Shown here: in pieces, positions 1 through 51,940 of the stretch
Layout: each line of letters opens with the position of its first letter
Position numbering within the stretch: the stretch's first letter is position 1
Origin: Fimicolochytrium jonesii
Lineage: Eukaryota
Assembly: GCF_025526975.1 (NCBI RefSeq)
Contig: NW_026515668.1
Location: forward strand, 1,302,001-1,366,000
Reading direction: 5' to 3'
DNA length: 64,000 nt
Program-made: the position numbers and the translations under genes
The notes under the pieces: model-generated
Told to the model about the DNA's origin: nothing
Databases searched by the model: none
The model's input: the letters and a program-made list of their open reading frames with translations, nothing else

Positions 1-194
1 CGGATCAGGGCCAAGGCGTGCGCCTGATGTCCCTGCCGGATGCACTGTTGTACTTGTCCCGAAGTGCGTCGCGGAGGCCCTCTCTGTTTTTCCAGATGGG
101 CACGATGGGCGCCAGGGGTTTGCCTGCGCGGGGTGGGCGGAGCCAGAGACGACTTGGCTACGAGCGCTAGCGCGGCGGGTGACGTTAACGCGGG

Positions 195-1274
195 TCACGC
201 ACCTTCTTTTTCATCCCCGTCTTTTTTAGCCCTGTGTTTTCTCTTCCCCCCATTTTTCTCCCCCTCAACAAACAGGGAGCCCACGTAGGTGTCCACAGCA
301 CGCCGGGCTGCGCGGGCGGTGTCGACGGGCTGCCCCATCAGGTCCCCCGCCACGATCCGCGCTGTGTCGTCGCAGTCCGTGACCAGGTAGCTGCGGCCTG
401 CGCTCCGAGAGGATGCAACGATGAGTCGGAGGGGCTCGCCGGCCAGTCTGCAGATCTCGACCAAGCTCTGGGCGGCTGTGATGAGCGCCCCCTCGGCGAC
501 GACGACGTCCGCGATGGTCGCCGATATGCTCCCCACGTCGTCGCGGAGCGCCCTCCTGTTGTCGGGGTCCAGCTGGTCGACCAACGCCCGCGCGAGGCTA
601 CGTTGTGCGCTGTGGCCAAGCAAGTTGGCGGTCCCGGGCCTAGCCTCCGCACCGGCAGCCTCCCTCATCCGCCCCATGTCGACGTCGGCCGTTTTCCGAG
701 CTTCCGCCATGTCCGCCATGCTCAATGACCTGAACCGATCAGCGGGGTCGCCCGCCCGTAGAAGCTGCAGCATTCGGTTGACCATTCTTGTCTTCTCTTG
801 CTGAAGGATGCGTTTGGCGGACTTTCCACTGCGCTTCTTGGGCGCGGCGCTCGCCCCCTCCTCCCCAGCCTCCTCCTCAGCGCGCCCCTCCTCCTCAGCG
901 CACCCCTCCTCCTCCGCGTCGCCCTCCTCCCCCCCTTCCTGCTCATGCTCGCTCCCCTCGTCGCCGACGGCAAGTAGCACGCTGGTGGCCATGTCCGCCA
1001 GCGCCTCCTCGCTCTCGACGTCAGAGTCGGAGCCATCAGCGGCCTTGTCGGCGGCCTCCGCCACCTTCGACCGGCGGGCCGGCATCTAGAAAAAGCAGTG
1101 GATATGCATGTGTCGTTAGCGCCCGCGCGCGGCAGTGCCATATATATGCCCGCTCCACACACCGCCCGCGGTAGCGCCTCCCCGCCCGCGCTATCGCATC
1201 CTTATGGCGAGTCTGTGGTGAGGCTATATATATATGCCAGCTGCACACCCCCATACCTCGCCGGCCGCTTCCAT
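195..1274 (-). CDS. Hypothetical protein (acidic N-terminal region, basic NLS-like tracts KKRSGKSAKR and GGKRKHRAKK)
   Basis: 296-aa ORF 195..1085. A probable short first exon MEAAGE (1274-1257) is joined in phase by an intron GTATGG...GCTAAC...TTTTCTAG (1256-1086). No recognisable domain. Confidence 0.55.
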
Positions 1275-1331
1275 GTTTGACCGGCTAGGGCCGGGCGCCT
1301 TTGCCGCCGCTTGGCTGCGAGTCTCCATCTT

Positions 1332-1396
1332 TGTGTGGGTGTGTGGGTGCGCGTGTGTGTGTGAGTGTGTGTGGGTGTGTGTGTGGGGGTGGGTGT
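1332..1396. repeat. Imperfect (GT)n microsatellite between divergent genes
   Basis: tgtgtgggtgtgtgggtgcgcgtgtgtgtgtgagtgtgtgtgggtgtgtgtgtggggg seen directly. Confidence 0.85.
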
Positions 1397-1701
1397 TTCT
1401 CCGCCTTCCAGAGCCGGCCGCACTTAGCTGCTTAGCCAATCCGCTGGAGGTGGCGCAGTCGCGGCGCAGCCGTGGCTTGCCGGTCACATGTCCACACTGC
1501 TGCTGTGATGATCGCCGCATCTCCAGGACCACACTGCCACACGAAACGTCAAGCGCTTGCAGCGGACGACAGCCCCCCGGCCAGCGCCTCCTTCCAGCTC
1601 AAGCCCGGCAACTCACACAGAGCACGCTCCGACAATGCTCAGCGCTGACGAGGTGAGTGGCCGCTGTGTAGCCGTGGGCGTCTCTGCCGGGTGTTGACCG
1701 C

Positions 1702-2129
1702 CTGATCCCGCAGCCCATGCTGAGCACGACCGCCGCTTGCGGGAGGTCGACCGGCATGGGGTGCGCTGTCTGGGCGTGTTTGCTATCCGCTGATCCCGCC
1801 GCCCATGCTGAGCACGACCGCCGCTTGCGGGAGGTCGACCGGCATGGGGTGCGCTGTCTGGGCGTGTTTGCTATCCGCTGATCCCGCAGCCCATGCTGAG
1901 CACGACCGCCGCTTGCGGGAGGTCGACCGGCATGGGGTGCGCTGTCTGGGCATGTTTGCTATCCGCTGATCCCGCAGCCCATGCTGAGCACGACCGCCGC
2001 TTGCGGGAGGTCGACCGGCATGGGGTGCGCTGTCTGGGCGTGCTTGCTATCCGCTGATCCCGCAGCCCATGCTGAGCACGACCGCCGCTTGCGGGAGGTC
2101 GACCGGCATGGGGTGCGCTGTCTGGGCAT
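1702..2129 (+). repeat. 88-bp tandem repeat, ~4.9 near-identical copies
   Basis: Unit ctgatcccgcagcccatgctgagcacgacc...gctatccg starts at 1702, 1790, 1878, 1966 and 2054. Confidence 0.95.
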
Positions 2130-2214
2130 TCTGCTGTGCCACGTCGATGGTCGCGATTGCGCGGGCTGAGCTGCTAACACCTTCCCCCTCCCCTTCCCCT
2201 CTACCGCGCCGCAG

Positions 2215-3513
2215 GCCACGCCACCCGTCCCACCCACCGCGGTCGAGGCTCTTCTGATGGGCATGGGCGAGAGCCGCGCCACAGCTATCTTCGGCGACAC
2301 GGTGGCCTTTTTGTATCCGCTGCTGGTAGACGCCGGCCTTGCCGCCCGGGACGCCAGCCTAGAAGACAAGGCAAAGGCGATTGGCCTTTTTTCAAAGAAG
2401 ATCAAGCAAGACAGCCCCACCCTTTGGGGTTGGTGGATCAATAGGCCAACGCGGTCCCGTCACCAGAAGAAGCGCGCCAAGCACCACATTGGGCTCCAGT
2501 CCGGCATCATTGCCGCAATCAGCGATGGCAGTCTTACCACGGCCGACTTCTCGGTGGACCCCCAGCCCTCCGCTAGCCGCCCGGCTGTTCACATCGTGGT
2601 GCCAACGCCCGCCTCGTGCGATGGCTGGGAGGGCGAGATGGCCTATGCGGGGTTTGGGAAGCGGCCGGCGAAGGCAAGGGGCCTGGATGGGCTTGAGCAA
2701 ATTGAACCCCGGGGGGGGGCCGACATCTACATCCGCGACGAGCACGGCGCCCTTGTGGCCACAATCTCGTACAATAGCGCGGGTCGTCGCGAGCATGACC
2801 TGCGGCTGGGGCTCATCGTCGAGTCCTGTGGATCCCGGCCGGCTCTGGTTCGATGGAAGGCTTCAAGGGGCACAATGCACGCCGCGGGGCTTCGTCGTGG
2901 CGTCAAGCACTCGGGATATGCCAGGGGGACGTCGCACTATTCAATGAAAGGAGGGGCTGACATGTCGGCAAAGAAGTTTCTCGTCGCCACGGAAAAGGCC
3001 TTCACCAAGCGACTGCTGCAGGAGCTCACCAAACGCAACCCCACCGCGGCGGCCTACCTGATGATGTCCATGCCAGAGGTGTACGGCCCACACTCCGATG
3101 AGTTCGCCCCGCTGTTCACCACGACCAACTACCAAGTGGTCGTTCACTCCGACCCGTCGGACGACGGCGTAGCCGGCAAGCTGAACCCGCACACAGGCCG
3201 CGCCGTATGGAAGCTGACCCCCAAGGAGGAGCTTCCGGAGGAGCTTCAGGCCCGCAAGCTATGCACGCAATGGGTGGCAGGCTATGCCGCCGCTCCGCCA
3301 ACCGTCGTCGGGGAGTGGATATTTGCGCTGCCAGAGCAAGGCTTCTACTTGGTGCTGCAGCCCAACTGCATGTGGACGTGGATGTCTGACAGGCTCCACG
3401 GAACGCCGGTGCTTGACGCGTCCGGCGGCAGTCGCCACACGGCTGTTGTGACGCTGCCCCTGGCGACGGCCGCGGCCATCCGGAAATACGGCCTCCCTGA
3501 TCAAGACGAATAG
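2215..3513 (+). CDS. TET/JBP-like 2-oxoglutarate-Fe(II) dioxygenase (main exon; 5' exon probably near 1635-1652)
   Basis: 418-aa ORF with GTMHAAGLR (resembles the GxMxxxGWR motif of fungal Tet-like proteins), HxD (HSD, 3145-3153), distal His in RLHGT (3397) and Arg in SRHTAVV (3433). A splice acceptor GCTAAC...CCGCAG ending at 2214 is in frame with the ORF; upstream donor GAG|GTGAGT at 1653. Confidence 0.7.
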   Translation, partial: ATPPVPPTAVEALLMGMGESRATAIFGDTVAFLYPLLVDAGLAARDASLEDKAKAIGLFSKKIKQDSPTLWGWWINRPTRSRHQKKRAKHHIGLQSGIIAAISDGSLTTADFSVDPQPSASRPAVHIVVPTPASCDGWEGEMAYAGFGKRPAKARGLDGLEQIEPRGGADIYIRDEHGALVATISYNSAGRREHDLRLGLIVESCGSRPALVRWKASRGTMHAAGLRRGVKHSGYARGTSHYSMKGGADMSAKKFLVATEKAFTKRLLQELTKRNPTAAAYLMMSMPEVYGPHSDEFAPLFTTTNYQVVVHSDPSDDGVAGKLNPHTGRAVWKLTPKEELPEELQARKLCTQWVAGYAAAPPTVVGEWIFALPEQGFYLVLQPNCMWTWMSDRLHGTPVLDASGGSRHTAVVTLPLATAAAIRKYGLPDQDE

Positions 3514-3820
3514 CCGCGCCACCCCCAGCAGCAGCGGCCCCCCCTCGTGCGTAGATGTGGACCTTGACTGCGTAGATTTTGTAGACCTTGCCTGCCTTGC
3601 CTGCGTAGATTTTGCAGACCTTGCCTGTGTAGAAAGGTCCCATCAATAGGCGAGTTTGGCGCGCAAGAGTCCGATGTGGCGAGGGGCTTGCTCCAGTAGC
3701 GCGGGCGAACGTGATGGACCGGACCTCGCTGCGAAGCTTCGGCGGCTGGAGGCCCGAGCTGCCCGTCCAGACCTTGCCCAGCGTGTCTCCGTCCTGCGGG
3801 CGCCACAATGACACGCACAC

Positions 3821-4360
3821 ACGTTAGCGCTGGACTCGTGACGTTAGCGCGGGCGTGGGCGCTAACGCCTGTGAGGCCGCGTTAGCGCGGGCGTGGGCGC
3901 TAACGCCTGTGAGGCCACGTTAGCGCGGGCGTGGGTGCTAACGCCTGTGGGGCCACGTTAGCACGGGCGTGGGTGCTAACGCCTGTGGGGCCACGTTAGC
4001 GCTGGCGTGGGTGCTAACGCCTGTGGGGCCACGTTAGCGCGGGCGTGGGTGCTAACGCCTGTGGGGTCACGTTAGCGTGGGCGTGGGTGCTAACGCCTGT
4101 GGGGCCACGTTAGCGCGGGCGTGGGTGCTAACGCCTGTGAGGCCACGTTAGCGCGGGCGTGGGTGCTAACGCCTGTGGGGCCACGTTAGCGCAGGCGTGG
4201 GTGCTAACGCCTGTGGGGCCACGTTAGCGCGGGCGTGGGTGCTAACGCCTGTGGGGCCACGTTAGCGCGGGCGTGGGTGCTAACGCCTGTGAGGCCACGT
4301 TAGCCCGGGCGTGGGTGCTAACGTCTGTGAGGCCACGTTAGCGCGGGCGTGGGTGCTAGC
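3821..4360 (+). repeat. 38-bp tandem array, 13 full copies plus partials, each with a 9-bp-stem hairpin
   Basis: Unit acgttagcgcgggcgtgggtgctaacgcctgtggggcc starts at 3841, 3879, 3917 ... 4297, with a partial copy at 4335. Internal inverted repeat cgttagcgc/gYgctaacg. Confidence 0.95.
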
Positions 4361-4654
4361 GCCGGCGTGGGTGCCACTCACCGTGCCCCGGGGCTCCGCG
4401 TCTGCAGGCCTCTACATGGACGTGAGCAGACAAGTTCCAGACCGCCAAGACCGAGCTCCTTCTTACAATTGCGCACAATTGCGCACACTTCCACCCTCGC
4501 ACATTCAAGGCAAACCCCCAGCCAATCTCTGAAAGCCTTCAGCACTTCGCAGGTAAGCGGGAGTCCAGGATCCTCCTCGAGAGCAGGCCCCTTGCTCGGC
4601 CCCCTTGATCTGACCACTTGCCTGCACAGCACAGCACAGCGCGGCACAGCCATC

Positions 4655-7519
4655 ATGTCATCACACCAGGCGCTCCAGGGGCACCTGTGGGGTGGCTTCT
4701 TTACGGGAGCAACCACACCACGGCGGAAGAGGAGGAAGGTTACTCCGGCTACCCCGCGGCTGCCCATAAATCTGCCAGCCGCTGTGCAGACACCTTTGCA
4801 ACCACCCCCGCGATTCGAGTTCCCACCTTCTGTCCATCGCCACTTGCCCCAAGCAATTGCAGACATGGTTAGCGAGAGCTCCGGCGATGAAGACGGGCAG
4901 CAGCAGCAGCAACAGCAGCGAGGGCTTTCGCCCGTGGACAGGGGTCTGCAGCGCCCACCGAACCTCCCCGCGCCCATCCCTTTCCGTTTTCCCAGCACAC
5001 CGGGTGGATCCCTGGTGTATGAACCCCCGCCACCACCACCAGCTCAACGACCCCGCCCGCAAACACATGCCAGCACCAAGGTTTCGCTTCACCGAATCAT
5101 CCAAAATCACAATCAAGTCCAAAGGGAGCGCCTGACAACGTTCATCGCCGATGTTCACGTCCTTGCGCGCCACACCACCTTCTTTATCAAGTACTACCTT
5201 GGTGAGTTTTTGAGGTACACTATACTGTATATTTCCCATAAAACAATGTCCTGACTGCTACATCTGCCCACCCCACCACAGCTGACCATCCTCTACACGA
5301 TTTCCCGGACATCACCGACAAGCACATCAGTGTGATGTTTGAGCTGCTCAACAATCCAGGCTACAATGGCAATCCGCTCATCGCGCAAGAGTTGCGTCCA
5401 TGGGTTCAAGACTACTGTAATGTTCACGGATTTGCCCCCATCCGCATGCGAAATTGCCAACAGACCGCAGCGTACACGGCTACGAGCATCCTCACAAACC
5501 TCAAAGTTAACGTACAAGAGCATTTCATGCAAATGTTTCTGCGCTACGTCAATGAGAGGCTTGGTTTGAAGCAAGTCGAACGGCATCTCCGGAGAGCGCA
5601 GCGGCGACACTATTATCGTCGTGTCTGTCAATTTACAAAGTACGCGACGTTTGAAGAGTACCCAACCGAAGAGGAGCTTGCACGCCTCACACGACTTGAG
5701 CAGACCGTCCTCGACGAGTTATGGGCTCTTTTTCCTCCCCAGGATGAGCCGCTTGCGTACAGCCTTGCGGTGGACGCAATGCCATATTTAGGTGAGTTAG
5801 TATATATCCGTCCCCCCCCTCCCCGCGGGTTCCGCTTTTGTCTAATCATGGTCCGCACCTGCCTCGCCTCATCACAGGTGCCTATTGTGAGCTCTCACGC
5901 CTCTATGAGCGCCGTGGAATGCGGCTGTTTTCCGCTATCCCGCTGCGCAAATCTTGAATCCAGTCATCTGTTCGGATCGACACAAAGATCCTAGGCACTC
6001 ATATCCTGGGCTTGAGCCAAAGTCGCATGGGGAAACTTACCGATGAACGCAAGCGGGAGCTGTGGGGGCAGTTTCTCAATGTGAATGTAAGTTAAGTCTG
6101 TATCCCTCTGCGCTTATTTCAATCACCTCGCTGAATGACGATTGGAGGACAAGGTCTTCAAGGATCGAAAGAAGCTTGGTCTCAAATTTGATGGGTCAAT
6201 CAGCACAAACGGGTATTCCGCTACCACCCACTTCAAGAAGCCAGGGCTCAAGTACGGCCATCGCGCTCGGAAGCGCAGCAAAGCCCAAATGCAGGAAGAA
6301 GTCAAGCAGCTGTATTTTGAGCACCACATCGCCGAACTAAGGGAGGCTCCAAACATCGTCTGCATTGATCCGGGCAAGCGTGACCTCTTGTTCTGTCGAG
6401 ACATCAAGAAGGAGCGGCCATTTCGGTGCGTTTCAGTTGATTACTACTGCCCTGCTGTCCCCGCTACCCCCCCCCCCCCCCCCCGTCTCCGCCCGCCAGC
6501 CCCCCGTCTCCACCCGCCAGCCCCCCGTCTCCACCAGCCAGCCCCCCGTCTCCACCCGCCAGCCCCCCGTCTCCGCCCGCCAGCCCCCCGTCTCCGCCAT
6601 CCCCGTTGCGGCGACATTCCGTTGCAGCGTCCTCACAATGCACCACCCCATATCAGATACACATCCAATCAACGGGCGGTCGAGACAAAGTCTCGGTACT
6701 TTCAAAGAGACATGAGAGAGCGAAAGATCAATGCCGGCATCGCTGAGATGGAATCACATATTCCATCGCACAAGAGCATGAACATCGAGGCGTTCTCAGC
6801 GTTCATCGTGGATTACGAACATGCGGGTATGATGTTCCACTTCAACTTTGATTTTCAACTTTGGTAATACATGGGCTGACATCTATATCCCAGATCCCGC
6901 CCTGGATGAGTTTTACCAGGATAAGGTTCACATAGCTCGCAGATTCAAGGCGTTCTCACTGCGGCAAAAGTCTGAGAGCAAGCTCATCAAGGACATGCGC
7001 CGCCTGTATGGAAAGCATTTTTCGGTCATCTTGGGTGATTGGAGCGACGCTGGAAAAACCATGCGCTTTCAGGAGTCATCAAAGACCAAAGGGTGAGTGA
7101 CCATCATTGTTTTTTATGTATTATAATACGCTCACTCATGGGGGGAAATCAGATTCCGCACACTCTTTGCAAGAAACAGCATTCCATGCTACTTGCTAGA
7201 TGAGTATCGAACGTCCTCCCTGTGCCCAGACTGCCACGGGCGTGTGAAGAAAAACATCCGACGCCGGCTGTCACCTCGGCCGTGGCAAGCTAGAAAGGGA
7301 AGAATGGAATACGTCCATGGATTGGTGGGTTGCCCCAACCCCGAATGTATCAACCAAGACTGGACGCCGTTTGAGATTCCTGGAAGACAACCACTACGAC
7401 TACGGATGAAAGTGCACAATCGGGACGTCCTAAGCACCAAGAATTTCCTCTCGATTGTGCGTTCGGTGGTGTTTGGCAATGGCCGCAGACCAGACGCATT
7501 CTCCCGTAACCGTAGGTAG
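4655..7519 (+). CDS. Fanzor1: Fanzor1 (eukaryotic TnpB-like RNA-guided RuvC nuclease), 7 exons, one in-frame TGA (possible pseudogene)
   Basis: Exons 4655-5201, 5282-5791, 5878-6086, 6148-6425, 6657-6826, 6894-7092 and 7153-7519 sum to 2280 nt in one frame. Motifs: FDGSISTNG, RuvC-I CIDPGKRDL (D at 6367), FRYTSNQR, ILGDWS, RuvC-II LDEYRTS (E at 7202), zinc finger CPDC...CPNPEC, RuvC-III HNRDVLSTKNF (D at 7424), N-terminal RRKRRKV NLS-like tract. TGA at 5955-5957. Confidence 0.88.
6467..6598 (+). repeat. Poly-C plus 21-bp tandem repeat (~5.7 copies) inside Fanzor intron 4
   Basis: ccccccgtctccRcccgccag repeated from 6479 to 6598. Confidence 0.9.
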
Positions 7520-7540
7520 TCTAGATTTCACCCCATCCCA

Positions 7541-27953: not shown

Positions 27954-30900
27954 CTACCCTTTCGATATCACTGAACCGCATTCACTTCCACTGTCTTGGG
28001 TCCTTTCCTGAGCATCGAGGAATTCCCTCAACTGCCGACGTCGAATCACTTCGCCGCACTTGCTTTCCAGGTCAACCTCCTCCTCCTGGTCCCAAGCATG
28101 TTCCTTCCAAATCAGAGGGGTTTTGAAGCAATATCGATTGAGCAGGTACTCGTCCGTTATACAGTGCCACACATGTGGCATGAGACTTTGAATTTTGGTC
28201 CTTCGACGTCGAACTGGCATCTCCTTGATGGTGCATGCATCGGTACATGCGTGCTGAACATTAACAACCGTGATACCCCCATGCAATCTGATGAGACTTG
28301 TGCGTGCTGTCCCTCGGATTACCGGACATTGGAGGATGACTGTGTTGCAGAGTACCTCATATTGTTGGACAATAGCAAAGCACCGGTTATCGACAGTCGT
28401 TGCACAGCGAAAGAATATCAAGAAGCGCACGACACCGCCATCTGGTAGCATTGCAAAGTCGCCTAATGAACATCAAGAGGAAGCCGTGACCAGTTGTTGA
28501 TACCGGTGTATTGTTGGGTCCTCGTAGTGCAGGGGACTCAATGCGTCAGGGATCTCGAACACCGGAGATGAAAGCTCAGAGAATCGCAAACTCTGCTCCT
28601 GTATTCGAATTCGCAGGGCGACTCCACTGGTTGGAAGATTCTCATCTCGATAGCCCATAAGCCGACAAACTTCGCGATTCTCCGCAAACAGCCATCGGAG
28701 GTCAGATCCAGCGGAAGTCCACTCTCTCCCTTTTCCAGCCCTCCAGCCAATATCCACCAGAGAAGACATGCCGGAGTGTTTGATACCGTGCAAACCTTTG
28801 TCCAATGTCCTTTGATGGCGATTGCCGATTGCTGTGCACGGAATGGCCCCGCATGATAGGATTGTATGCTTCAAATTTTTCGCTGGCGTACAAACGTGCG
28901 GGACCAAACCGTCGTATGCTTTCGGGGAAGTGTAAGATGATGTGGAACTTGTGCTTGTTGAAGAAATCGTCGTCGACGTCGCACATCCTAGCAATAGTGA
29001 CATGTATGCCCTGAGTGAGTGCGCGAAGGTATGTCTCCATATCCTCGATGCTTTCCGTGTAAATCATCGCCGTCAGCTCACTCATTGCCATCCATGCGTT
29101 GGTCCATTCGGGTGAGAGAAGATTTCGGCAAAGGAACGGCGCAACTTGGGCAATCGCGCGGAAATCCTTCCCAATCAGGCTGTGTGAGTACTGGATTAAC
29201 TGCTTGCTTTTGAATGTGGTATCAAGCCCCCTTGTAGCCATCGAGTCAAGCCGCGCTGCGAAAACTATCTTCTCTGGCCGCCTCGCCATGTGTTTGATGG
29301 TTGCCCGCCATAGCCACTTGACTGTTCCTAGGAGGATTGTATGGAGAGCTTCCACCGGACTATCCTCGTGCCCGTCGAAACCCACAAGATCAAACAACGG
29401 ATTCAGACCATACTGAGCGATATGGAGGGCTGCGTGCCTGTCGATGTCACTCAGCGGCAATTTTTGTGAGCGCATGGAGGTCAGCTTGGTAAGCAGGTTG
29501 GTGGCGTATGTGGACTTGACACCGTTCTCTCTCTGGTTGCGTTGTAGGGCGGTTACCCCCTGCGTCTTTGCGATGACGACCTGCTTGTCGAGTGTATCCT
29601 TTGTCTCCCTCCAACTCCTCGCCATACTAAGCTGGAGCAGTTGATGGAGGTCTCGGCATGTTTTGACATTTCCGCTGACCTTGCAGAATCAACAGAAGTG
29701 CGTACCATTCTTGATATCAATCATGGACGTGAGCTCGTTATGCATGGGGTTGTCACCTTCAACACAAAACGTGTAGCCAATAACGACAACTTCCTCCATA
29801 AGACGTGCATCGTAAGCCAGAACGCCTCGCTCAAGGCCGTTGCGGATATCATTGACAACGAGTTTTCCAATGTCCAACGGTGATGCGCAGTTGCTTGTGG
29901 CGATAAAATGTGTATTGTAGTCCATCTGGCAATATTTGAAAGGTAAGCCCGCTAGTTGGAAGCACCAGTTGTAATGGCAATTCCATTTTTTTGACCGATT
30001 GCCCGAGACGTCATCACAGTACAAGATGAGCGGGGTGATTATTACTCGCCTGTTCCCAATCACAATCTTCAGGTGATGTGGAGACAAGATGGAGGAGCGT
30101 TCATCATCTTCGTAGATCCTGCTTTTGTTCCGCCGTGAACTCTTGAATCCCACAAGCTCATGACCACCCAATTTCCGCTCTTCAAATTCAGGTGTGAGTT
30201 GCGAGGTCAGAGTCGCCACAGGTCTGAGTACTTCGATGTCAGTGATCCAATAACCGCTGACGTCAAGCCGCATCTTCTGTCCCTCCAACCACAGCTGCCC
30301 TTTGCGGGTGAAAAATCGCTTGATGTGAAGGAGGGTTCCATCTGCAGTTGCAAAGTCGCCAATGAAGTAGCTATTGCCGCCGTGCCGGACCATGGGCAAG
30401 CGCAGACAGGGGTCGGTTTTCCACCTCTGGCTGTGACACAGCTCTGATATGCCCGATTCCACATCTTCACTGAACGTGCGCAGGTGCCGCATCACTACTG
30501 GATTGGCAACATCTTGCATGACGGCACTGGTCACGCTGTTGATATGCACGCTGTCGCCTTCCTGTGTTGTCCCAACACGGCTCTGGCATCCGACCTTCAG
30601 CATTACGGCGTCGAGTTCTTTTTCCACCTGTCGGGATGGGAATGGGGTTAAGCCAATTCATCACGAGAATTCCAGCTGAACGATCGGGTCAGTGGTCGTG
30701 GTTACCTTTGCAATGCTCGGAAGTACAACGCCGAACTCCCGCGCCCACCACCATATTAGCTGCAGAAGCCCTTCCGAGATTGGATGTCTCGGGATGTTCA
30801 TTAAAAGGGCGCATAATGCTACCTGTAGGGGGTTAGACATTGTGAGCAACGGGCAATGCTACGACGGAGGGGGAGCAGAGTCGATGGTAAGGAGCTGGTC

Positions 30901-31430
30901 ACCCACCTTCTTGCTGCTAAAGGGATAATAATCTTCATTGCTGCCAAAATCGAGGTACGTTTCTGCGGCGCCATCCTCCCCTTGTTGGTTGATATCGATA
31001 TCTGAACCATAATCCGACGGGCATTCGTCATTGCCTGATGTGTCACTGTCGCTGATGGGTTCAACATAATCTCCATAACGTTCATTTTTGATTGCCTCAT
31101 CCTCATGACGGCGCATCTGTTCTCCCTCACTGACAATTTCATGATGATTGGCCAGCTCGGTTGCGTAGAACGGGTCAACATCCATGGCATTGCTGCTGCA
31201 GTCGTCTGTGAACATATCCTCAATTTTGGATGGGGGTCTGTGGGTGGCAACCTGCATTTGTGCGATAGCAAGTTCATGTTGAGTCGATGCAAGGTGGCGG
31301 CAGGTGTGGAACGGTCAATCGCTAACGCAGACGTTACAGGCCGTGCACAGCACTTTCTTGTGTCCAAACGGCTTCAGCAATATCCGGAACAAGTACCCAA
31401 CTGGAGCAGAATGGTTATCCCTGTGTGTAT
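27954..31430 (-). pseudogene. CMC/EnSpm-like transposase pseudogene with N-terminal C2H2-like zinc finger
   Basis: CTAC...HLASTQH; YPFSSKK; LILYCDDVSGNRSKKWNCH; GDNPMHNELTS; FC*FC; PVEALHTILLGTVK; KFHIILHFPESIRRFGPARLYASEKFEAYN; VNVQHAC. In-frame TGAs at 31315-17, 29689-91 and 28473-75, and a frameshift near 28745. Confidence 0.85.
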
Positions 31431-31610: not shown

Positions 31611-32777
31611 CTCACAGCGGGACGTGCATTGGACATGAGGTTTTTCATCCTGGAGATATAAACCGTATGTGGAAAACATAACAGTGTGTTCATCCAAACG
31701 GCATGACAATGCATGTTCATACAGCGTTTGCATGGGCGGAATGTGGTTTCGATATGCAGAGGTTTGTGGAAAGGATATGTCAGTTTCGGAGATCTGGACG
31801 ATGTCATTACGTTATGCATTTGACGCGTTTCGACAGGCTAAAATGACATCGCGATGTTCATCCAGACAACGTGCGCCCAACATCGTGGTCATATGAAAAT
31901 TTAAATCACCCGTTTTTTGCACTGTTTTGGGTTATGGTTGTACTTTAATATCGTTTTTTGACGTGACGGCGATCGCCCTTGCGAAGTTGACACCGACGTC
32001 CAGAAGTCGGTTTACCGCCGGTTCATGGTGTGCATCCCTCCGAAGCTGAGGCACACAATTGTTACACATGGATCTCTCATCAACTTGGAGATCAAATTAA
32101 ATTCAGGTTACCGAACGACTTGGACGGAACCCTGGAATTTGACAAATCTGGCGGCGCGTGACCTATTCCGAGCGATGCCAAGGCAGGCTTTATCAGAAAA
32201 GCCCTAGGGAGGACCGCGCCAGGGGTGACTGTTTGGACATTGTGAAATTGAAGCACCGCCGTTCCGGGGCCCAACTCCGGCTGATAAACTTGTGGGCGGT
32301 GTGTGCCATCCACACGCTGGCGTGGTGTTACCAGCCCGTCTCCTATCGGGATGTCTTCTCGCGAGGCTTGCCCGCCGGCCGATTACCCGGCTCTAATGAA
32401 TTGTGCGGATATAAAAGCGATATGGATCTCCTCGCCGTCCCAAAGATATCCCCCTTTCCTTTCTTACATTCGCTTACGCTCGCCTACACCACAAACATCC
32501 GGGAACCTTTGAAACAACGCAAGCTGCCCCTTTTCAACCACTCTTTTCGTACTCAAATCTGAGTTTCCGCGATTAGCAGCCTGCTTCACGGACACCTGCC
32601 ACATCGGTTACTGGACGGCATAGAGCCAAGGACATCGAATACTTTCCTTCGAAGAAGATAAATACCTGCCGTGCTCCTCCTCGCATATATATATAGATCA
32701 GCAAATCGCAATCCCTCGTGGTTCGCACCGACCCTTCGTGCACTACGACTTCATCGTTAAAGCAAGTACCTTACAAC

Positions 32778-33041
32778 ATGCACACCCCCAACCCCACCCC
32801 GTCGATTGAGATCCCCCAACGCCAGAGGTCCATGTCTCTCTCGTCGATTACATCCGTGGGCTCCGCATCCGGCTCCCCACTCTCCGGCGCATCCCTCTTC
32901 GGATCCCTTAAGCGCTCATTCTTATCGACCGAGCCGGTCGCAGCCGCGAGCGCTGCACCAGCACCCGGACAGAAGAAGCTCCACAAACCACCAGTGGACA
33001 AGCTACCAACCGAGTACGGAGTCTGGGCCTCCATGCACTAG
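32778..33041 (+). CDS. Small Ser-rich hypothetical protein
   Basis: MHTPNPTPSIEIPQRQRSMSLSSITS... with C-ending codon bias and upstream TATA-like runs at 32658-32695. Confidence 0.5.
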   Translation: MHTPNPTPSIEIPQRQRSMSLSSITSVGSASGSPLSGASLFGSLKRSFLSTEPVAAASAAPAPGQKKLHKPPVDKLPTEYGVWASMH

Positions 33042-34056
33042 AGAAACTGAAGCGCAAGTAGATTAGTTCCGTCGGACGAAATGCTGTGAAAGAGAAATGT
33101 CGATCGACTTCGCTCCTGGGAGTTCACATTATTGGACGGAACTTTTGTACCATACCATATCCCTCCCGCTTTTTTCCCTTTCTTCTTCTCTGTACATATA
33201 TACCTTCATCTTCTCCGCCATACAATTGAATAAATGAAGTTAGTGTTTTGGGTAAAAATCTGCTTTCTGTCCTAGGTATTCGAAAAAACGTCTTGCCTTT
33301 TGTGGGAAAGCGCGTTTTGCTCTCGTGGCAGCCATCAATGCCCATTGCAAATGTCAAGGTCGGCTTTCCGCTGAACGGGCCTCCACCCACGGTGCAGTGT
33401 CTTACATGTGCCCGACTTACCTTCGAAGCGAAGGTGCTCACCGCAAATACAGGGGGACTTAAAGATCTGGAATGAAACCTCCAGCCATATGAAAAGCTCC
33501 CGCGCATAGTTAGATTGTTTGAGTCTTGCTTGCCAGCCTTGACAATAGCCTTCACACGATTCACTGTCGTTATTGCTAGCAGGGTGGCCAACGGAAGTTG
33601 GGATTGCCTGCATCCGTTTCAGTCTGGGCATCATGAAGTTCCTCGGGGTTGCAGCGACGAGTGAATATGGTAGGATGTCTGTCCTGCACGTGTAGGAAGA
33701 CCGGATGCGAGCAACTGAGAAACCTGTCCCACTCACTTTCCGGAAGTGACATGACGAGTTCTGCTATGGATATCCTTGGTCTGACTCTCCCGTATATCTC
33801 CACACAAAAAACCAGACGTCACGGACTTATATTGGGGGAGAAGAACAAAACGAAAAAGTGTGGGGTATTCCCGAACGTCACCGTGACATTCCGCATAGTG
33901 CGTAAGGTTTCTGGGGCACCGGCAGGTTGATATAAAAGGAAAGCACAGCGCCGGACTTCCTTCTTCTTCCCCTCACCGGCTTGCTTGTGAATATTAACAT
34001 CGCTACAACGTCGGAAACCCAAAATCCACAGCTCACACTCACTAACCACATCCAAA

Positions 34057-38258: not shown

Positions 38259-39527
38259 AGGTGAGTACACAGCTGGCCCAGAATGTCAGTTTCGTTTGCG
38301 GTATGTATTCCTTCTGGGCGGGTGGTTTATGTCCCAGGAATGCACTCAGGAGTTGAGACGACTGGCGGCTTTTGTTATGCAAACGTCGTCGGCCGGAGAA
38401 AGACTGGCGAAACACAAAAAGCTCACAGCGTAAAATGGGGTCTCGCTTTGGAGGAGGCAGCGGTAATGCCTCTCTCTATCTATGTATATCTATGCGTGGG
38501 ACTGTGCCCTTGCTCTATTAGCTCGAAGAGTGCCTTCTGTCGGGGACCCTAGCATGCAGCCTTTTTTCCCAGCCCCGTTTTGCCTGTTGGGTGTTGGGTC
38601 GCCTGGGAATGAGCACCAATGGAATGGGCGGCCAGCCATATGTGGATAGTCAAGATGGTGTCACCAACCAGGAACTACCGCGCACGCGTCCACCTCAAAC
38701 AGCCGCGGCTCCTTACCTGTCCACTGGGCGTCGCAGCGCAGCCCCATTGGCCAAATCATATGGGGACATTGGGGAGTTGGAACCAACCGCTCTTTCGGCA
38801 TTTATTTCGAATTTCACCAAGAACGCGAAGTTGTGGACAGAGAATCTATTTCGTGTAACCCATGCGCCAAACTCTATTGCTGCACGCCGATGCCATGTGG
38901 GTGCCCACTGCGGGAATTGCGGGAATTGGCGAACACAAGCCTCGATGAAACAGGCTTTGGCGTACAGTCAGGGAATAAAAGCTATAGACCTCCTCTAATT
39001 CAAATCAATGTCGGTCCCTCACGTGAATTTGGCGTTGCGGCAGTCGCTGATTTATTTCAGGGGGGGTCCAGCTTTTAGTTCCGCTGACTGTACAGTACTG
39101 CCTTTAGTCTGAACAACACTCAGCGTACACCTTTCGAGAAGGACACGCGGCATGAAGTCTCTCATCAGCTTCTGGGAGGGTCATACGAATTGCGAATTGC
39201 GCGCCGCATCAGCAGTTGCGATACTTCTCTGTCCACAGCAGACGGCTCTCTCTGGGGGAACCTGACGAGAAAGGCTCATATGCAGCGACGACATATGTAG
39301 CAAGAGGGACAAACTTTGCTTTCTGAGCGAAGAATTCTTATTGTTTGGTATGCACATTGATTTCGTAAAGGTCATCCACAGAGTCTATATATCTTTCTAC
39401 AGATGGGAGGCTACTCTAAATCTACATCTTCCACGCCCCGTGTGAGGTTGGTGGAATGTGGGGGAATATTATTACAGTGCGAATTTTGGTCGCAATGGAA
39501 AGATACGGGTACGTAGGCATCTTGCGA

Positions 39528-40595
39528 TTACCAGTTGCACTTGAGGCTGTTGCACTCGGGACCCTTGGCGTTGGCCTTGTCCATGATGGACTTGCAGCGA
39601 GCGGACATACCCTCCTTGCTCACGCACGCGTTGAAGTCAGCCCACAGCTGCTGCTGCTGGGCCCAGCACTTGGGCTGCACATCCTGGCACCTGGGGGTGC
39701 CTCCGGGAGCCGGAGCCGGAGCAGCCGTTGGCTTGGGGACGGGAACGGGAGTGGGCTTGGTTGGAGGCACAGGGACCGCGGTGGGCTGGGTTGGGGGTTT
39801 GGCAGTGGGCTTGGGAGGGGGCACGGGGACAGCGGTGGGCTTGGTGGGAGGGGCGGGTGCAGAGCCGGACGCCTTGGCGATAGCGGGGCCAAAGGTGGGG
39901 TAGGAGTTGAATGGAGCGTAGACGTTGAAAAGGACTCCTGGGCTTTGGTAGGTGATAGCGCCCGGGAAGTCCACCTTGGGGGAGAAGTTGGCGTTTCCAG
40001 AGCCAGTGACGGTCAGCTCGGCGCAGTAGACGTACAGCTGGAGGCCGCGAGCGGGGTTCTGGGTAAAGAGGGTATCGGCCTCGTGGAGGGCGCCGATTTC
40101 GGCACGAAGGAGGTACTTGCCGCTGGGGAGGTTGGAGGGGAGAGTAACATCGAGAAGACCCTTGGTTTCGATGAGCCTCGATGTGCACCATTTGCCGTTG
40201 GGGTAGCCTTCCTCCTGGATCTTGAACCAGTCGGCGCCAGTAGGAACGCCGCCGTTCGCTGGCTGGGCTGCAAGGTAGATGTTGCAGGCACCCCAGTGGG
40301 AAGCAGCGATGATGTCGTCACCGGGGCGGTCGTGGCCGAAAATGAGACCAAGCTTGGAGCCGGCAGTGATCGGGCATCGCTGGGCGGCAGGCTGGGTGGG
40401 AGCGAAACCGCAGATCATGTTCTCGGATGTGAGATCCTTGATGGGGTAGTTCCTCTGACCGGTTGTCCACTGCGATGTGTGCCGCACGCAATCGCCATTT
40501 GCTCCTCCAGGCAACACAATGTGGTCGAGGTAGGTGTGGGCGAAGACTGACTGGGCGGCAGCCAGGAGCGATGCGGCGATAATTGCGACCTTCAT
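39528..40595 (-). CDS. AA9 lytic polysaccharide monooxygenase with P/T/K linker and C-terminal Cys-rich module
   Basis: Signal peptide followed by His1 (FA|HTY), DDIIAASHWG, WFKIQE, YLLRAEIGALH, QLYVYCA, FPGA. Confidence 0.92.
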   Translation of the reverse strand: MKVAIIAASLLAAAQSVFAHTYLDHIVLPGGANGDCVRHTSQWTTGQRNYPIKDLTSENMICGFAPTQPAAQRCPITAGSKLGLIFGHDRPGDDIIAASHWGACNIYLAAQPANGGVPTGADWFKIQEEGYPNGKWCTSRLIETKGLLDVTLPSNLPSGKYLLRAEIGALHEADTLFTQNPARGLQLYVYCAELTVTGSGNANFSPKVDFPGAITYQSPGVLFNVYAPFNSYPTFGPAIAKASGSAPAPPTKPTAVPVPPPKPTAKPPTQPTAVPVPPTKPTPVPVPKPTAAPAPAPGGTPRCQDVQPKCWAQQQQLWADFNACVSKEGMSARCKSIMDKANAKGPECNSLKCNW

Positions 40596-47072: not shown

Positions 47073-47519
47073 TTTCCAAGTCTTCTTTCCATGAAACCCT
47101 CATGTTCCGTCCGCAGCTTTGAGCGCGGATATCTTCAATTCCCTGGTATTCGGTAATTTTTGGATCATTGTATCCTAGCTAGCCAAGTGTAGGTATAACT
47201 CCTCTTCCCTCCGTTTCGATGTTCCATGCTCCCGTGCTGAGCTTTGCGGTACATACTTCTTCAAACCTCATCCCTGTCGCTCTATCTGTACATGTATGTA
47301 CTCGACTTGGGAGCACCAATAATGCACAATGTTTGTGGCTTACTATAGCGCTGCGTTTTCGAGAACGAGCCCCATCGAGACTCTGCTTTGATCGATGACG
47401 GCAATACTGCACACACACACCACCTCGCATATATATACACTATATACCCGCTCGATTTGGGCTAACCCTACCCCTACTCCTAAAAACATGTGCGACTGGT
47501 GTCGTTCTAGCGTTGTCGC

Positions 47520-49130
47520 TCAAGCATTTCCCAAACTTAAGCCCTCACACACGAGAGCCCTTTTCGGCTGACAGATCTTCACCAACTCCCTCAAAACACC
47601 CTCGCCATCCTTGCTAGGCGATCCTTTCCCTGTGATGACGTGTACCCTCTTCAAGACGGGCAACGTGAGGAAGACAAAATCCGTCATGACCCAGCGCGCT
47701 TCTCTCCACATGCAAGCCCTGCAAGTCGACGTGGACCGCTCCGCGTCCATCGCTGCGCCCATCTTGCCGGCGGCGTTTGTACTGTATGCTCGTCAGATGC
47801 TCGTAGATGTCTGCGGCCGCATTGTCGCGCGCCTTCTCCAGCGCATCCGAGACGACATGGGCACGGGCGAACGTGGCCTTCCAATCCGGATGGTCGGATT
47901 GTAGGAGGAGGGGAGCTGTTGCTGGAGCTGGCGGTGTTCCTCATTGAGCTTGCGGACGGGTTCGCGCGCCGCGTCGTATAGATGCGCTGCTTGTGGTCGT
48001 GCGACATACTTTTGGCGGCGGTGGTGCTCACCACGCCCACCATACTGAAGAGGATGGCGGTGACTTGTGCCAGGACAGATTCGTGCGCTGTCAAGAGGCT
48101 TGTGAGAAGACGACGACGGTCATCGCCGTCGGACTCGCTTAGGTGATGCGGAAGGTCCTTCAAAGCTGGTACGAGGTTGCGCTGGATCCTCACATTGGCC
48201 AAGGTAGTGACAAGCGAGTCGGGCAGGGCGGCGCGGCAGAGGACGTACGCAAATGGAAACTTCGACCGCTGTGTACTGTACATGTAGTGGTGTCCGATGC
48301 AAAGCTTGTCTTACACGCCTTGTGGAAGCAAGCGAGACACGGGCCACAACTGGCGTGCTTGCATGGCTAAATCGAGTAAATCGTTGCCAAGGTGAGCGTG
48401 GTGAACTCCACGCAGTAAGACAGATGGTGCAACCGTCATCCGCGAACACGGCGTCCTTTGCGACCCCCAGGGAGACGAGCTTTTCCGCCGGAGTGACCAT
48501 CAAATCGTTGTTCGTGGCCGGTTGCTTCTTCTTTCTCTTGCCGTTCTTCCTGCGCTGCGGCGCCGCTTGCATGGGGAGGGCGTACGACAGGCGAGCCTTC
48601 ACAAGCTTTGCTTGAGCTTTCATGTTCCGCAAATCATCTACAACATCCGGGAGAATCTCCTCAATGGGGAAGATGCCAGTGGCAAGCAGGTGTTCCAGGT
48701 CCTCCAGGGCAAAGTCAATGTCGGTTTCGGGCATACGCTTCTCACCGAGTGCGTGGCAGCACTTGATGCGCAAGCGGAGTATCGTTAACGTACAAAGGTA
48801 TGCTGCGCAGCAGGTCGTCGGCAGCTCTCGTGAGACAGCGTTTGGCAGGAAGGTATTCGTGACGGTCCATGAGATCGCGTGCTTGCCGCTTAAGCTCGTT
48901 GTACTCCAGTGGGTGGGAAGTCGGGGATGCCTCGAACGGCGCACAACATGCTAACCCGCTTCACGGCCATAGCGTTGACAAACCCGGTCGAGTCATCCGC
49001 TGTAAGTGTGGACGATGAGATGGACAAGCCTCCAATGGTGGCCATGACGGATGCGCTGGAGGCTTGTGACCATGTTGCCGTTGAGGGCACATTGCAATAT
49101 AAACATCGTTTCTGATTCAGGTCACGCTGC
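47520..49130 (-). pseudogene. Degraded RING-finger plus Smr-domain gene
   Basis: DDGCTICL (RING start) with later Cys/His in shifted frames. Smr-like VDLQGLHVE and VHVITGKGSPSKDGEGVL lie in different frames. Confidence 0.6.
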
Positions 49131-49289
49131 AAACGACGTCCTTACGTGAGTCGTTTCCATTTATGTATGTAGAGGCACGGTTATTGTAGCTTTCTATGGC
49201 CTACTAGTATGAATCCTGATGAAAGATCTTTGAAGCTCGGGGGCATGGCAGCACTCTCGTTGTGAATGGGTTGGAGACGTTACAAGCCA

Positions 49290-49742
49290 TATACTCCGTC
49301 TCACTCACAGTTGAGGGACCGAGATCGCGTAGCTATAAGGTAGCTTTTGGCATCTCGGTCCGACAAAATGTGAGATGATACGGCGTATAAGACGAAAGAG
49401 AGCGTCCGAGACCAACGAATGGAGGCCTGAATAGCGGGAGTGCGGACGCGACAGTAGAATGGCCCATATGCCTATACTCCGTCTCACTCACAGTTGAGGA
49501 ACCGAGATGCGTGGCCACAGGGTACCGTTGATGGAAACTCGGTTCGTCAAAATGTGAGATGATACGGCGTATATGGTCGAGGACCGACGAATTGAGGTTA
49601 AGGACGCGATCGCGAACGGTTGGATGGCCCTTACGAGCCTATACTCCGTCTCACTCACAGGTGAGGAACCGAGATCGCGTAGCTGGAAGGTAGCCACTGA
49701 TGGAATCTCGGTCCGTCAAAATGTGAGATGATACGGCGTATA
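49290..49742 (-). ncRNA. Cluster of three ~100-nt conserved hairpins (49290-49389, 49473-49573, 49640-49742); candidate small-RNA precursors
   Basis: Arms tatactccgtctcactcaca and tgtgagatgatacggcgtata are identical in all 3 copies, with inner stem accgag/ctcggt and variable loops and spacers. Minus-strand TATA box (cctataaatac) near 49943-49954. Confidence 0.45.
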
Positions 49743-51579
49743 TGCCTTGTACGGAACGGCGATGAAAGCGAGCGACGACAATGAAGACCGTGCAAGGTCG
49801 AATGGTGGCAAGTGAGGTAGCAAGTGGTAGTAGCCAGGCGACAACGGTCTTGGCGGAGTTCAGCTCCGGAGTAGGCGAGTGGCACAAGAAAGCGAAGCGA
49901 AGGGCGACTGAAGGAAAATCAGGAAGTGCGGACCCAAGATGCTGTATTTATAGGCCGCGAGAGTGAATGCGATCCGGCCTGAAGGGACCTCGGCGAAGCT
50001 GTGGTGTATGGGGCCCGGCCTGACCTAATTTCGCGAACAGTAAAGAAGGTAAGGCCCATGCCGTGCTTGGTCGATGTTTACGATATTAAGATGGAAGCGT
50101 AATCAAAAACAGGCGCAAGACTCTCACTTGAGAGAAGGTAAAGGAAGGGACACGCGACGGGGGCGGCACGCATCAACAGCAGCAGCAGTGAACCCGTTCA
50201 ATTAAAGCAAAGAAACGAATAAACCGTCGCAGCATATTACGCACGAACCCGCAGTCTTTGTCCTGTTGCTGGTGCTTTTTCCTACCCAGTGGCCCATATC
50301 GTTCTGGGCAATCAAGCGCAATCAACAAATGGCGCGCAACAAATGGCGGGAAAGACCCTTGACGCGTTGGGTAAGCAAGGACGCGTCCAAAAACCCCTTC
50401 GCAAACAGCTAATGACCGTAGAAAGAACGAAGGTTGTGGATCGACCGCACAGGTGTTGCAGCTTTTATCAATGGGTCTCTCCGGGTAAGCAAAAGAGCAG
50501 TCCTCTCACCAAAGTGCCGTGCGTGAGCTTCGACGTATGAGATTCCGAAGAAACCAGCGTACGTTCGACAATTCGATCTGCGAGGGTGTCTTTATCGTAG
50601 ACCTTCAGATGCGAACGAGGCATGAATGCGAACTACGGGGTACTTGTTGACTTTCTCAAGCAATACCGATTGACAGATGAACAACAGCTCAAGCAAAGAG
50701 CTGCATCCGAAAAGATTCGGCTATAGAAACACCTAAAGCGTTACGAGAAGGTGCTACGGTTGCCGTGAGGCCAACCTATCTACCCTGCAAGTGTCTGAGT
50801 CAATCGACAGCAAGAAGAATGAGGATCGGGAACGCTATACCGCGCATGGCTGCTCGCAAATGCAATCCTTCGGGGCAGACGTAGGGACGACAATGTAGGG
50901 AGGCATCAGTCAACCCTATTCAACGGCGAGAACCTGAATGAAATGGAATAGGGGGCGACTAGAAAGAGGTGAACGTTGACCGCTGCTTCCCGGGGACGGT
51001 CGGACACTCTTTGAAAGCACGAGCAACGCGGTCGGCAAGGTTCAAGCGCTGTGACGGGAGTCGAGGATTGGAGGACATCGCTCAATTTCAGTCCGGGTGG
51101 GATCCATGCCCCTCGGTTATCGTTCAGGTTGTTGGAATGTAAATAAGTCTGATGGGTTTGATGTTGCAAGTCCCTCTGCTCGTTGGTCAGCGAATGACGC
51201 CGCCACCCTAAAAAGGTTCGTCTTGAGATAGCTGAGTGATTGTGAAACTAACGAGACCATCGTAGAATAAGGGACAATGCATCACAGGGCTGGGACCGCT
51301 AAGCAGCGTTGCGACAGGTATGACTTCTGGAAACCATTTCAACACGCCGGACACAATGTAAGATATACCGCAACGGGGTGAAGGTGAAGCCGCTCGGGTA
51401 CCGACAAATACTCAGGCGGCTGCCTCGGTGTGTAGGTCCTAACCGTTTGATATGAATAGGATCAATGACGCTAAAAGGTCCTTCAAGCGAGCGTCCAGAT
51501 CCAGAGCTAGATCTTTAGACGTCCGAGATGTGAAAACGCGAAAGTGGCAGTGTACAGTATATGTAGCAGACTGTATGTA

Positions 51580-51706
51580 CAGCCAGGGAACATAAAGCTG
51601 TTCCCCCCGAAGGAATAAATCAGCGACTGCCGCAACGCCAAATTCACGTGAGTGACCGACATTGATTTCAATTAGAGGGGGGGCACAGCTTTATGTTCCC
51701 TGGCTG
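51580..51706. mobile_element. Tc1/mariner-type MITE with TA target-site duplication
   Basis: ta|cagccagggaacataaagctgt ... acagctttatgttccctggctg|ta: perfect 22-bp TIR extended by cccccc/gggggg. Confidence 0.75.
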
Positions 51707-51940
51707 TATATGTAGCGCCCACAGAGCGTGGCGAGGCCTCGAGTCAACGTCACCCCATCCCGAATGCCATTCCTCTCGAAGTTACCTTAGTCTCATAGAC
51801 TGCGTATACACTCACACTATATCCAACCTAATATTGAAGGTCGGCACATTAAGCTGCCCATCGCCCGTCGAGGTGCACCTGATCACAATTCCGGCCCTCT
51901 TTCGTACCACTCTCGCTCACTTCGCCAGCACAGCACCATC

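Follow-up and report, generated by a model that had tools for sequence, protein, structure and literature searches.

A tandem triplet of hairpins with invariant arms, a candidate microRNA-like locus, in the chytrid Fimicolochytrium jonesii

An array of three tandem hairpins lies in a 64,000-nucleotide (nt) stretch of Fimicolochytrium jonesii contig NW_026515668.1, which was analysed whole and is referred to here as the window. Its closest described counterparts are the microRNA (miRNA) and microRNA-like RNA (milRNA) loci of fungi, a class that is poorly established (PMC9757828). The re-analysis by Johnson et al. 2022, which covered 41 fungal species and no chytrid, confirmed 666 of 1,727 reported loci (PMC9757828), and the words "cluster" and "tandem" are absent from the main text of that paper. 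In the available text of PMC6206976, which names S. punctatus in its resource list, Drosha and Pasha were not found in Holomycota. Of 19 chytrid assemblies, 14 had a detected Dicer, and so did 3 of 4 Spizellomycetales assemblies; Fimicolochytrium is not in the files searched (PMC12663654, Table S1). Searches of the main text of open-licence papers in PMC and bioRxiv returned none that describes a chytrid microRNA-like locus or the sequences given below, the arm sequences among them, and the available parts of PMC13533422, PMC11258239 and PMC5751038 hold nothing on small RNAs of this genus.

The hairpin triplet and its arms

The locus is a real, apparently selected, non-coding hairpin triplet, the parts of which are collected in Table 1. 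A preliminary description of the window, made from its letters, had reported three tandem hairpins of ~100 nt with invariant arms of 20-21 nt, and the coordinates, the exact arm copies and the shuffle tests agree with it. Arm A (TATACTCCGTCTCACTCACA) begins at 49290, 49473 and 49640 and arm B (TGTGAGATGATACGGCGTATA) at 49369, 49553 and 49722. Each is present in three exact copies and, with up to 4 substitutions allowed, has no further match in the 64 kb on either strand, and the two-arm pattern has 3 matches where 0.02 would be expected. On the minus strand, the outer stem is an unbranched duplex of 18 pairs, interrupted by a G.A mismatch, an A.G mismatch and one bulged U. These two mismatches and the bulge recur identically in all three copies, as had been described. 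Above the outer stem come a small internal loop and a mid stem that extends the arm to ~37 nt (stem ~37 bp per arm), followed by an apical region of ~30 nt, which includes a short helix of 5 bp.

Folding of the hairpins is not matched by shuffled sequence. In each of six strand and copy tests, 0 of 200 dinucleotide shuffles was as stable as the hairpin (z-scores from -5.0 to -7.7). The minimum free energy (MFE) per G+C is 0.79-1.06 and, by energy per G+C, the array windows take ranks 1-3 among 2,556 plus-strand windows of 100 nt. The comparison with Rfam that the preliminary description proposed found no family: there were no matches at the gathering score and two at chance level (E 0.6-0.9). 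A tRNA search of the locus found none.

The spacers have the lengths first described (66-83 nt). They had also been described as diverging, which they are, but they are mutually homologous (local alignment score 43, which none of 1000 shuffles attained) and hence were not independently acquired. In the remaining five of the six flank and spacer pairs, similarity was not significant (68-920 of 1000 shuffles). Between the two spacers, 19 of 64 aligned bases differ and there are several indels in addition. Because the spacers are homologous, the array is best read as an old tandem triplication, ~30% diverged. Across the copies, none of the 41 columns of the outer arms varies, compared with 5 of 32 mid-stem columns and 15 of 30 loop columns. 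By Fisher's test the arms differ from the spacer (3.6e-5), from the loop (1.7e-7) and from the mid stem (0.013), and a boundary-free, run-length permutation on arm invariance gave 59 in 200,000. In addition, the arm mismatches and the bulge were retained and not perfected. As the arms are invariant while the homologous spacers and loops are ~30% diverged, purifying selection has probably acted on the arm sequence itself. These conservation statistics are drawn from three paralogous copies in one genome.

Table 1. Coordinates of the hairpin array and of the features around it
Feature	Position	Strand	Details
Gene P0036, 474 aa, multi-exon, downstream neighbour	47182..49045	-	annotated ATG 245 nt beyond copy 1
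Weaker TATAAACA (TATAAAC), facing the array from the other side	49098..49105	+	downstream pyrimidine 0.55, 73rd percentile
AATAA and ATAAA, possible (weak) 3'-end signals	49160..49185	-	motifs at 49185 and 49164
Outer inverted-repeat extension starting with TA, left array end	49281..49289		possible remnant of a transposable-element terminus (MITE, see text)
Hairpin copy 1, 100 nt	49290..49389	-	arms 49369-49389 and 49290-49309; MFE -47.4 kcal/mol, z -7.5
Spacer, 83 nt	49390..49472	-	homologous to the other spacer
Hairpin copy 2, 101 nt	49473..49573	-	arms 49553-49573 and 49473-49492; MFE -39.7 kcal/mol, z -5.4
Spacer, 66 nt	49574..49639	-	homologous to the other spacer
Hairpin copy 3, 103 nt, first after the minus-strand TATA	49640..49742	-	arms 49722-49742 and 49640-49659; MFE -45.3 kcal/mol, z -6.5
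Outer inverted-repeat extension ending in TA, right array end	49743..49751		pairs with 49281-49289 at 8/9 bases
Pyrimidine-rich, ATG-free leader	49760..49940	-	68.5% C+T
TATA box TATAAATA, likely core promoter for transcription of the array	49945..49952	-	1 of 6 TATAAA sites in the window
Alternative: mirtron-shaped putative intron, GU...AG, arm B-spacer-arm A, 124 nt	49370..49493	+	z -2.9
Alternative: GU...AG segment of the same arm B-spacer-arm A shape, 107 nt	49554..49660	+	z -2.7

A candidate microRNA-like precursor and its strand

The triplet may be a polycistronic microRNA-like locus that probably uses the TATA box at 49952 for minus-strand transcription, with a guide of ~21 nt for Argonaute as its predicted Dicer product. 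This is the best of the readings considered and is held tentatively, with a probability of about 0.48; the locus is a good, though unproven, candidate. A polycistron of miRNA or milRNA type had been suggested in the preliminary description. The part of that suggestion which stands is the arm invariance, which is significant, together with the minus-strand TATA box and pyrimidine tract; the covariation and the single G-U pair on which it also drew are weak.

In the proposed mechanism, an RNA polymerase II (Pol II)-type precursor starting at 49952 would carry all three hairpins. Because Drosha and Pasha were not found in Holomycota (PMC6206976), processing would be by Dicer only, with the same ~21-nt guide released from all three hairpins and loaded on Argonaute, so that the triplication would raise the dose of a single guide. 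The favoured register places the duplex in the outer, invariant stem, with the 5' arm (UAUACGCCGUAUCAUCUCACA) as the predicted guide and the 3' arm as the star, and release would take place by a cut on the loop side plus trimming. Given 2-nt overhangs, U is the first base on each strand of the outer duplex, and its terminal 4 bp come to +1.4 kcal/mol at the 5' arm, the weaker end, versus -2.0 kcal/mol at the other. The 5' arm is the predicted guide because of its 5' U and this weaker end. A second register would have the cut ~11-13 bp above the base and the guide starting at arm position 12, which is also U. It would put a GHG-like mismatch near the position at which it is found in animal Drosha substrates (PMC7668254), and this is treated as a curiosity since the Microprocessor was not found in Holomycota (PMC6206976).

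Minus-strand transcription is favoured because the TATA box and pyrimidine tract resemble those that precede coding genes in the window. The TATA box had been placed ~200 nt upstream on this strand, and TATAAATA does sit 203 nt before copy 3. The 100 nt that follow it are 69% pyrimidine, which is at the 99.2nd percentile and the highest value among the TATAAA sites, and the first ATG comes 485 nt downstream. A or T stands at position 7 in four of the six TATAAA sites of the window. Downstream of all four the DNA is rich in pyrimidine (92nd-99th percentile), and in two cases an ATG at a distance of 92 and 126 nt, respectively, starts a long open reading frame (ORF).

Several results weigh against the microRNA-like reading or against the strand on which it is placed. 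The inner stem does show a G-C / A-U / G-U series across the copies, which the preliminary description had offered as evidence of covariation. In 2 of 38 pairs both sides have changed by way of a minus-strand G-U intermediate, and 236 of 500 shuffles do as well, so the covariation is at chance level and no longer counts as evidence. The G-U wobble of copy 3, which had been given as a clue to the strand, is present, but of the nine variable pairs four are G-U on the minus strand and two on the plus strand, which leaves the clue weak. A third pair that favours the plus strand is found in the basal extension of copy 3, and a plus-strand TATAAAC starts at 49098. When the full-length minus transcript is modelled, the arms pair across copies (probability at least 0.99; -255.7 vs -231.4 kcal/mol), and a modelled plus transcript keeps its local hairpins (0.95-0.97). 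Long-range folding of this kind is unreliable, and in the models the arm duplex would be identical in either register.

Processing and conservation also supply points on this side. Dicer was not detected in Geranomyces variabilis, a relative of the host, in the available part of PMC12663654. The distance between the duplex strands is 59-62 nt in the favoured register and ~37-40 nt in the second, both of which exceed the <20 nt of well-supported fungal milRNA hairpins (PMC9757828). The target search that had been proposed was run within the 64-kb window, a small part of the genome, and gave no target above shuffles: the best penalties for five candidate guides (6.5-8.5) were matched by 48-99 of 100 shuffles. 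The sample is small, with three copies from a single genome, and metagenome, viral and prokaryote collections yielded no orthologue of the array. As these collections are non-fungal and hold no fungal genome sets, absence from them says little on conservation. In metagenomes, the two-arm pattern had 0 matches and the single-arm pattern had one (L001), which was without its partner arm. Four single-arm matches in viral contigs were all without partner arms, a looser two-part pattern gave one match (L006) with no arm complementarity by eye, and prokaryote genomes gave 0. None of the six returned loci (L001-L006) carries the hairpin of the array. Three of them (L003, L004 and L005, around base 501) are one homologous giant-virus gene that carries 19 of the 20 bases of arm A, antisense to its reading frame. 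The matches thereby come down to two independent ones, which is within a rough chance estimate for which the collection size was assumed, and the gene was set aside as a target.

If the microRNA-like reading is correct, hairpin-derived guide RNAs would be extended to an early-diverging fungal phylum in which the Microprocessor has not been detected. The locus would also inform the question of how many times microRNAs had independent origins and whether miniature inverted-repeat transposable elements (MITEs) were their source. The locus is an unusually clean candidate for a zoosporic fungus, with a triplicated hairpin and apparent sequence-level purifying selection on a 21-nt duplex.

Alternative readings of the array

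The arms could be conserved as a structural or protein-binding element that is not diced. Candidates are a 900-nt structured leader of P0036 that uses the TATA box of the array, an independent structured non-coding RNA and a protein-bound DNA palindrome. P0036 does lie on the strand favoured for the array, with its annotated ATG (49045, minus strand) 245 nt past copy 1, and the invariance of both arms, unpaired bases included, fits protein recognition equally well. Stable hairpins and upstream ATGs hinder ribosome scanning, and three hairpins of -40 to -47 kcal/mol accompanied by upstream ATGs at 49467, 49353, 49290 and 49246 would make a poor leader. A structural RNA is not suggested by any Rfam family, and the invariant block of 21 + 20 nt has the size of a Dicer duplex. 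An undiced element is accordingly graded as unlikely.

A transposable element enters the argument in two ways, as an ancestor and as a full explanation. At the outer ends of the array, the inverted repeat runs for 7 further bases and stops at TA on both sides, which gives a TA-flanked repeat of 27-28 bp. Copy 3 retains part of this extension, which is eroded in the other two copies. A TA-flanked MITE may have given rise to the ancestral hairpin, and as an origin this is compatible with the microRNA-like reading. It is improbable, in contrast, that the array is simply a Tc1/mariner-type, TA-flanked MITE that was tandemly triplicated and has been decaying neutrally, with arms that are alike by chance or through gene conversion. 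The window does contain another MITE-like pair (51575-51711 and 38963-39094), presumably of Tc1/mariner type. Its members are ~135 nt long, TA-flanked and 85% identical with inverted repeats of 32-34 nt, and they start much as the array does (TACAGCC vs TACAAGCC). In that control pair, however, the inverted repeats differ at 16 of 66 columns and the interior at 6 of 69 (p 0.019), so that the repeats diverge more than the interior, the reverse of the array pattern. Neutral decay is expected to be equal in arms and spacers, which is rejected by the 0 of 41 and 19 of 64 variable positions, and the mismatches within the arms were kept and not homogenised. The outermost bases of an element are those most needed by the transposase, and here the outermost 7-9 bp are the eroded portion. 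An nhmmer profile of the hairpin found no further copy within the 64 kb. The MITE alternative of the preliminary description thus provides a plausible ancestor and leaves the present conservation pattern unexplained.

On the plus strand, the array could belong to a spliced non-coding RNA in which the segments running from arm B through the spacer to arm A are mirtron introns. Splicing of these self-complementary introns would replace the missing Drosha cut and hand Dicer a perfect duplex with a 2-nt overhang, from which the 21-nt 3' arm (UAUACUCCGUCUCACUCACAG) would be freed. A hairpin with GU and AG ends and a 2-nt 3' overhang has the geometry of a mirtron. In every copy the last bases of arm A are CTCACAG and the first bases of arm B are GTGAGA, and the invariance of arm A stops at the AG. 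The two segments (124 and 107 nt) are within the range and style of five host introns chosen by eye (60-124 nt). In the MFE and in the centroid structure, the 5' GU of both is paired and AG is left as an overhang of exactly 2 nt. Their folding was matched by 2 of 200 shuffles for each, and shuffled stems give this geometry in ~0.8% of cases. The geometry was picked post hoc from some ten motif ideas, which brings the 0.8% closer to 5-10%. Upstream on the plus strand are TATAAAC (49098) and a GTGAGT donor (49146), while the minus-strand promoter is stronger. Further difficulties come from the layout: both splice sites would lie hidden within the local 37-bp hairpins, there are only two such introns, and the terminal arms, which have no intron partner, are equally invariant. 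Moreover, the supposed exons (59-62 nt) are palindromic and share no open frame, and no clear CTRAY branch point is seen at the usual distance. A tandem mirtron array is, on balance, quite improbable. If true, an early-diverging fungus would have a microRNA pathway that is initiated by the spliceosome, derived from a transposon and evolved independently of that of animals. Like mirtrons, the plus-strand segments are GU...AG, have host intron length and carry a 2-nt 3' AG overhang and a 3' arm that starts with U; unlike mirtrons, their pairing runs 15-17 bp into the would-be exons and their loops are large (66-83 nt). Mirtrons in fungi are mentioned as unproven in the available part of PMC9757828.

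A repeat-spacer array of guide RNAs, which the preliminary description had listed and which might be CRISPR-like or consist of omegaRNA "ghosts" of the Fanzor1 nuclease encoded in the window (~4650-7520; E 3e-28 and 9e-16 to SpuFz1), is very improbable: the SpuFz1 target-adjacent motif CATA (PMC10432273) does precede two minus-strand copies, but the spacers are paralogous (45 of 64 bases alike, 0 of 1000 shuffles), the hairpin profile has no match at the Fanzor locus, and the described ghosts are ~550 nt long with a 75-nt scaffold at one end (PMC10432273) where the array has symmetric hairpins of 100 nt. Readings as a C/D or H/ACA small nucleolar RNA, a Y-RNA, an RNA polymerase III (Pol III) transcript with A and B boxes, or an RNA with an Sm site or spliced leader were tried by eye against their motifs, and none fits all three copies.

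Genomic setting and comparison with known systems

The window belongs to a eukaryotic contig that carries introns and, judging from its sequence, the host is a soil chytrid fungus of the Spizellomycetales; the top matches to an AA9 monooxygenase in the window come from Powellomyces, Fimicolochytrium and Geranomyces. The array is intergenic, with the neighbouring coding sequence beginning at 49045 and the hairpins outside any coding sequence. The P0036 exon that adjoins it is 100% identical to a 474-aa Fimicolochytrium jonesii protein. A C-terminal match of P0036 to Pfam Smr is weak (E 0.067, below the cut-off), and its RING-like matches in the Atlas score at most 0.78, which makes them a lead only. 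Its RING-like cysteine pattern is scattered across frames, which the database model seemingly splices differently. Among 191 longer candidates, P0036 recovered itself and no other homologue, so synteny could not be used.

Other features of the window were seen in passing. The AA9 lytic polysaccharide monooxygenase gene (39528-40595, minus strand) encodes a Pro/Thr-rich linker and a Cys-containing C-terminal region, and TATAAAAG lies 92 nt upstream of it. At 32410-33050 on the plus strand, TATAAAAG again occurs with a pyrimidine tract, and the first downstream ATG is 368 nt off and opens an 87-aa ORF; this region is a candidate for a long leader or an unannotated non-coding exon. The gene for the Fanzor1 homologue (plus strand), 42 kb from the array, is apparently split by several GT-AG introns, whereas SpuFz1 has been described as a single ORF. 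It contains a 21-nt tandem repeat (6479-6595). No clear terminal (inverted) repeats were found around it. Beside this gene, positions 1-4400 form a GC-rich block (~65%, vs 52% GC elsewhere) with tandem arrays (88-nt x4.8 and 38-nt x13.8) and TG repeats, which is possibly a mobile or subtelomeric element. At 28473-31373 on the minus strand are several neighbouring ORF pieces, of which the two that were scanned have no Pfam match, and these pieces are presumed to resemble a broken gene of a Plavaka-type DNA transposon.

Set against known systems, the array shares with fungal mi/milRNA loci (PMC9757828, PMC3547838) an intergenic stem-loop, the lack of an Rfam match, an unbranched duplex and a lineage-specific sequence. 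By the structural measure of Johnson et al. 2022, which is a stable hairpin with an unbranched duplex, the minus-strand hairpins have z-scores of -5.4 to -7.5, and by their measure of context the array has no match to a structural RNA and lies outside coding sequence. The predicted 5' U is likewise shared, as the major Neurospora milRNAs prefer a 5' U (PMC3547838). The array differs in geometry and promoter: the top-tier fungal hairpins have <20 nt between strands (PMC9757828), in contrast to 59-62 nt in the favoured register of the array, and the major Neurospora loci (milR-1 to -4) are Pol III products (PMC3547838), whereas the array promoter resembles those of coding genes in the window.

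Like Tc1/mariner-type MITEs, the array has a short, TA-flanked inverted repeat. It is unlike them in that its copies are tandem, its spacers homologous, its inner arms invariant and its termini eroded; in the MITE-like pair of the window it is the inverted repeats that are the more diverged part.

With clusters of animal primary miRNAs (pri-miRNAs), the array shares a stem of ~35 bp (~37 bp here), single-stranded flanks and tandem paralogues (PMC7668254). Near its base is a C-G / G.A mismatch / C-G triplet (3' strand G-A-G), which is similar to the animal mGHG motif. The mismatch is 6-8 nt away from the base, according to how the junction is placed, compared with a canonical distance of 8 and mGHG positions 7-9 (PMC7668254). 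The basal UG and the CNNC of animal pri-miRNAs were not seen by eye at their canonical places. To our knowledge, the lower stems of animal miRNA paralogues are not usually sequence-invariant.

Plant miRNA genes (MIRNA) of the loop-to-base and MITE-derived kinds have a basal duplex, an ancestry in transposon inverted repeats and a TATA promoter. The array resembles these loci in its basal duplex, its structured upper stem of 15-17 bp, its possible transposon ancestry and its TATA box, and differs from them in its fungal host. Overall, the array would work like a miRNA cluster and is a candidate for one.

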